Below are positions 41,076-41,091 of a stretch of DNA of 64,000 nucleotides, in pieces. The DNA comes from Escherichia coli (GTDB lineage: Bacteria > Pseudomonadota > Gammaproteobacteria > Enterobacterales > Enterobacteriaceae): assembly GCF_003334405.1 (NCBI RefSeq), contig NZ_QOWM01000001.1; one strand, written 5' to 3'. Each line of letters starts with the position of its first letter. The stretch's first letter is position 1. The notes beneath the pieces are model-generated. The model was given only the letters and a program-made list of their open reading frames with translations. It made no database searches and was not told the origin of the DNA. A program made the translations under genes and the position numbers.

Positions 41076-41091
41076 AGCAAACGTTTGCGAG
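41076..41091. promoter_or_regulatory. PurR operator (pur box) for purMN
   Basis: aGCAAACGTTTGCgag, near-perfect palindrome matching pur box consensus ACGCAAACGTTTGCGT; about 65 bp upstream of purM start. Confidence 0.75.

Follow-up and report, generated by a model that had tools for sequence, protein, structure and literature searches.

The pur box upstream of purMN in the divergent upp-purM spacer of Escherichia coli

In Escherichia coli, purMN and upp diverge from a common intergenic spacer, in which a short palindrome can be recognized on the purM side. Is this palindrome the operator through which PurR, the LacI/GalR-family purine repressor, controls purMN, and does it also act on upp, on the opposite side of the spacer? 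A preliminary description, made from raw sequence, had placed a near-consensus PurR operator at 41076-41091, and had proposed that purine and pyrimidine controls share one 325-bp region.

The DNA analyzed (hereafter, the window) is a stretch of 64,000 nucleotides from an E. coli chromosome of the K-12 type. A base-by-base comparison of positions 32001-64000 with MG1655 (NC_000913.3) 2,598,208-2,630,207, taken as its reverse complement, showed three SNPs, at 35831 (ppx), 41458 (upp), and 60195 (hyfA). A window position p can, thus, be converted to its K-12 position (NC_000913.3) as 2,662,208 - p. The purM-upp spacer is 100% identical to that of MG1655, and so are the 451 bases around the purM box, which were found in 5,425 of 5,426 complete E. 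coli genomes. The purR gene lies outside the window, presumably about 0.9 Mb from this locus, as in K-12; its presence in the source genome was assumed, because the window is K-12-type DNA. The features of the locus are collected in Table 1.

Table 1. Position and basis of the features discussed (window numbering).
Feature	Position	Strand	Details	Basis
guaBA-promoter pur box (weaker)	28069..28084	+	ATGCAATCGGTTACGC	Sequence, PSSM, ChIP-chip motif
purN CDS	39336..39974	-	Second operon gene; start overlaps purM stop	ORF list and MG1655
purM CDS (b2499)	39974..41011	-	GTG start; first gene of the repressed operon	ORF list and MG1655 annotation
purM-upp spacer	41012-41335		324 bp; between GTG 41011 (-) and ATG 41336 (+)	
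Putative extended -10 of the purM promoter	41062..41070	-	TGT + TAGAAT	Conservation in 35 Enterobacterales sequences
PurR operator (pur box) of purMN	41075..41090	-		Sequence, published ChIP-chip motif, PSSM, conservation
purM -35 position	41090-41085	-	TCGCAA, first six bases of the pur box	17-nt spacer from the -10
FNR site upstream of upp	41241..41254	.	TTGACTAAAGTCAA; independent of the pur box	Sequence; described and deleted in PMC3266220
upp promoter	41266..41308	+	-35 TTGCCG 41266-41271, 16-nt spacer, -10 TATAAT 41288-41293	Promoter scan, 10/12 matches
upp CDS (b2498)		+	ATG at 41336; uraA next	ORF list and MG1655

Read on the purM strand, from 41090 to 41075, the box is TCGCAAACGTTTGCTT, with its central CpG at 41083/41082. 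It is a 16-bp imperfect palindrome with the GCAAAC-type half-sites of pur boxes (consensus ACGNAAACGTTTGCNT). It matches the perfect palindrome ACGCAAACGTTTGCGT at 14 of 16 positions, departing from it at positions 1 and 15 only, and its inner 12 bp (41077-41088) are perfectly palindromic. The string quoted in the preliminary description, agcaaacgtttgcgag, does stand exactly at 41076-41091, but the symmetric 16-mer starts one base to the left.

How far such a match exceeds chance depends on the way it is searched for. The exact 12-mer palindrome occurs once in the window, against a mean of 0.01 in 100 dinucleotide shuffles. When two mismatches are allowed, the 12-mer is not enriched in the window (2 found for 6.2 expected), and loose pattern matching is useless for this site. 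An inverted-repeat finder reported none in the spacer, its minimum length probably excluding a 6+6 palindrome. A PSSM scan for pur boxes across the window, which had been proposed as a check along with PurR ChIP data, was carried out with a matrix built from 25 published PurR sites, the three sites located within the window being omitted from training. It recovered the known purMN, guaBA, and yfgO/perM sites. The purM box obtains 17.6 bits from the asymmetric matrix and, from the symmetrized one, 18.65 bits, the highest value in the window; both scores lie within the span of the training sites (12-25.8 bits). In random sequence with matching dinucleotide statistics, 0.17 matches of at least 17.5 bits are expected per 64 kb. 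By itself, the PSSM score is modest evidence (significance of about 0.05-0.15 across the window); the statistical weight is carried by the perfect palindrome and by its position on the purM promoter, in a 324-bp spacer.

Other matches were found in the window. The box upstream of guaB, which had been announced at about 28065-28080, is real and corresponds to a ChIP-chip motif, with coordinates about 4 positions off. It ends 4 bp before a TATAAT (28089-28094), upstream of the guaB ATG at 28139, and, at 15.0 bits, is the third-best PSSM match in the window. Its published ChIP-chip motif is GCGTAACCGATTGCAT, with a weak signal (0.84) obtained with adenine only (PMC3159470), and work on PguaB regards it as a putative PurR site that overlaps the core promoter (PMC2885671). 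Of 5,421 E. coli genomes, 5,420 have the same 40-mer around it. The third published ChIP-chip motif in the window ('yfgO/yfgC', CCGGAAGCGATTGCCT, PMC3159470) was found at 46372-46387, with 13.6 bits, 45 nt inside the annotated yfgO (perM) CDS rather than in a spacer. Two intragenic 16-mers, at 43959-43974 (hda) and 56815-56830 (hyfD), reach 13.6-14.2 bits with the PurR matrix, a level at which about 1.8 matches per window are expected by chance; neither is reported as bound.

The best match to the asymmetric matrix in the window (18.0 bits) is a 16-mer inside uraA, at 42424-42439 (GCGCAATCGTTGCCGT, reverse complement ACGGCAACGATTGCGC). It corresponds to codons 126-131, encoding the conserved peptide GAIVAV, and reaches at least 15 bits in only 5 of 22 Enterobacterales, its synonymous positions drifting. 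Due to this drift, and to its absence from the published PurR ChIP-chip table (PMC3159470), it was rejected as a second operator; it looks like a coding by-product. Since the purM site is equaled in score by this 16-mer, a motif score is insufficient to part a real operator from a look-alike, and the deciding evidence for an operator is its position, its conservation, and binding data.

Regarding position, the purM box abuts the conserved TGnTAGAAT of a purine-gene promoter, and 71.5 bp separate its center from the purM GTG. The purM promoter escaped a generic promoter scan owing to the weakness of its -35, TCGCAA, which shares only 3 of 6 positions with TTGACA. It appears to be of the extended -10 type (TGnTAGAAT), devoid of a real -35, and transcription would start near 41055/41054, about 7 nt after the -10. 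On this basis, the pur box would span about -35 to -20, with its center near -27.5, a geometry that stays conditional because the start is itself deduced from the conserved -10. It agrees with the PurR site placed '28 nucleotides upstream of purM' in PMC3266220, and fits the observation that PurR sites mostly overlap promoters (PMC3159470, PMC6245113). Another conserved block, CGCGTGGGGAC, is found at 41016-41030 (- strand) in the 35 Enterobacterales sequences, just upstream of the purM GTG; it is presumably the purM ribosome-binding region.

Conservation was assessed on purM loci from 80 gamma-proteobacterial species, by retaining the best PurR-PSSM match in the 400 bp upstream of purM, with a cut-off of 12 bits. 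A PurR-type box of at least 12 bits was found in 61 of the 80 species, 52-140 bp (mostly 57-93 bp) from the start codon, while none of 80 equal-sized stretches of purM coding sequence, used as a control, reached this score. This footprint upstream of the orthologous gene is seen in Enterobacterales, Pasteurellaceae, Vibrionaceae, and Aeromonas; in the same set, no box of at least 12 bits was detected upstream of purM in Shewanella, Pseudoalteromonas, Idiomarina, and their relatives. When the upstream regions of 35 Enterobacterales are aligned, the box block CTCGCAAACGTTTGC and the CTGnTAGAAT element are both conserved at 90% or more at nearly every position, against mostly less than 50% in the upstream flank. 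Among E. coli genomes, 5,421 of 5,423 carry the same 40-mer around the box (41058-41097). A control 40-mer taken about 60 bp away in this spacer (41120-41159) is shared by only 1,509 genomes, and in 2,457 it has diverged beyond detection.

Binding data are available for E. coli. In a PurR ChIP-chip study (PMC3159470), the motif given for the purM-purN region is letter-for-letter the same as the window site, the bound region extends over 2,618,847-2,619,484 of U00096.2, and the log2 enrichment amounts to 2.08 with adenine (the assay ceiling) and 0.98 without it. The upp-purM spacer has also been cloned on a high-copy plasmid, in a study in which the same sequence is called a PurR site (PMC3266220). 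Deletion of AAACGTTTGCTT from the multicopy plasmid weakened its protective effect, which the authors explained by PurR titration; survival was also raised by a chromosomal purR deletion (PMC3266220). The purMN operon serves as a review example of repression by PurR, the corepressor being hypoxanthine or guanine (PMC10912719). In vitro PurR binding and purR-dependent purMN repression are attributed to He et al. 1990 and Meng et al. 1990 in the later papers citing them (PMC3266220, PMC10912719, PMC3159470).

The claim of a near-consensus PurR operator upstream of purMN is, thus, borne out, the palindrome, its conservation, and the published ChIP-chip motif being in agreement, and 41075-41090 is almost certainly the purMN operator. 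When hypoxanthine or guanine is abundant, a corepressor-loaded PurR dimer settles on the 16-bp near-palindrome, just upstream of the extended -10. Because the box covers about -35 to -20 of the purM promoter, the bound dimer would exclude RNA polymerase, and less AIR synthetase (PurM) and GAR transformylase (PurN) would be made as a result of this occlusion. Under purine scarcity, PurR leaves the site and purMN is expressed.

Two other readings of the palindrome have to be weighed against this one. The site could be targeted by another LacI/GalR-family protein (GalR, GalS, CytR, RbsR, or similar), instead of or besides PurR, as the AAnCGnTT core is common to the operators of this family and GalR binds a site overlapping the PurR operator at the purR gene (PMC5110547). 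This is hardly credible: the outer positions (CGC...GC) are of the PurR type, versus GTG...CAC for GalR, and PurR occupancy at purM was measured directly and responds to adenine (PMC3159470). In addition, purM is absent from the 15 GalR-bound ChIP-chip regions (PMC5110547); GalR cross-binding at the purM box was rejected on account of its outer bases and of this absence. The least probable reading is that of a chance match, or of a sequence conserved as a promoter rather than as an operator. Promoter function alone is an insufficient explanation, given the poor -35, even though the box overlaps the -35 position and would be conserved there in any case. The conserved block is, moreover, 15 bp long and palindromic, and in Pasteurellaceae and Vibrionaceae, too, the box is found at a comparable distance upstream of purM. 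The matches of this strength expected per 64 kb (0.17) and the similar score of the uraA by-product speak for chance, but in vivo binding and a deletion effect are published (PMC3159470, PMC3266220). The purM box is, overall, best read as the PurR operator of purMN.

The second half of the question concerns the upp side of the spacer. The upp promoter had been announced about 200 bp away, and it lies 184-208 bp from the center of the purM box. Downstream of its -10, a G and an A are followed by a run of eight T (41301-41308), which we take to be the initially transcribed tract for UTP-sensitive reiterative transcription, and which is outside the PurR operator. For the regulatory mechanism of upp, Tu & Turnbough 1997 and Cheng et al. 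2001 are cited in PMC6245113. The FNR-type palindrome TTGACTAAAGTCAA is near-perfect; if the start is taken as the G/A that the TATAAT implies, its center falls about 52 bp upstream, versus -61.5 in PMC3266220. In E. coli strain MEW (NZ_CM192120.1), the upp-purM spacer is matched in two separate places, a split corresponding to about window position 41220 and suggestive of inserted DNA that separates the FNR site from the purM side. Rfam returned nothing within the purM-upp spacer; at the upp-uraA junction (41944-42062), several matches (Trp_leader, STnc240, and others) were obtained, all under the gathering score, and a hairpin between upp and uraA is most likely the cause of this pile-up.

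A PurR bound at the purM box could, in principle, also control the divergent upp-uraA, and thereby constitute a shared switch for purines and pyrimidine salvage. The two promoters do share a spacer (of 324 rather than 325 bp), the divergent arrangement is kept in 50 of the 80 species, and PurR represses some pyrimidine genes elsewhere (carAB, pyrC, pyrD, and codBA; PMC3159470, PMC6245113). Nevertheless, such control is very unlikely. The box center is far upstream of the upp core promoter, and PurR, a dimeric repressor, acts from far upstream at carAB only, where PepA is required (PMC6245113). The distribution of the box provides no support either: it is kept in 15 species with no upp within 1.5 kb of purM (e.g., Enterobacter cloacae), and Shewanella and Parashewanella lack it despite their divergent upp. 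On this comparison of loci, the pur box travels with purM rather than with upp. In Enterobacter, Leclercia, Kluyvera, Pluralibacter, and relatives, the divergent arrangement is broken, with the pur box and the -10 element retained. The known control of upp relies on its own T-tract and on the FNR site, upp is not mentioned in the PurR regulon paper (PMC3159470), and no report of PurR control of upp was found in the literature on the PurR regulon and the upp-purM spacer. Less likely still is a variant in which PurR at the purM box would damp the upp-uraA promoter, or cooperate with the uraA 16-mer 1.35 kb away, so as to couple purine status to uracil salvage; nothing in the present data supports it, and the uraA 16-mer drifts at its synonymous sites. 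Of the shared region first proposed, the common spacer, thus, stands, and the shared control is unsupported.

The purM box is confirmed as a long-known and ordinary PurR operator, and the guaB box and the upp promoter are also real and known. The locus is, therefore, a calibration case, in which a textbook operator was recognized from raw sequence, and it yields no new biology.

Compared with the E. coli K-12 purMN operator (He et al. 1990; Meng et al. 1990; Cho et al. 2011), the site presents the same 16-mer, at the same locus and with the same strand relation, with no difference. It also resembles the purF operator, likewise a 16-bp pseudo-palindrome with a central CpG and GCAAAC half-sites, overlapping its promoter and acting by occlusion. 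Crystal structures of PurR-hypoxanthine-DNA complexes were reportedly obtained with the purF operator by Schumacher et al. The purF site has one weaker half (AAGAAAACGTTTGCGT, PMC3159470), whereas in the purM site the inner 12 bp are fully palindromic and the only deviations fall at outer positions 1 and 15. The guaBA box is bound by the same repressor and similarly overlaps a core promoter but, unlike the purM box, it shows at least four departures from the consensus (AATCGGTT core), together with its weak, adenine-only ChIP signal. PguaB is, in addition, under further control by an UP element, FIS, CRP, and DnaA (PMC2885671).
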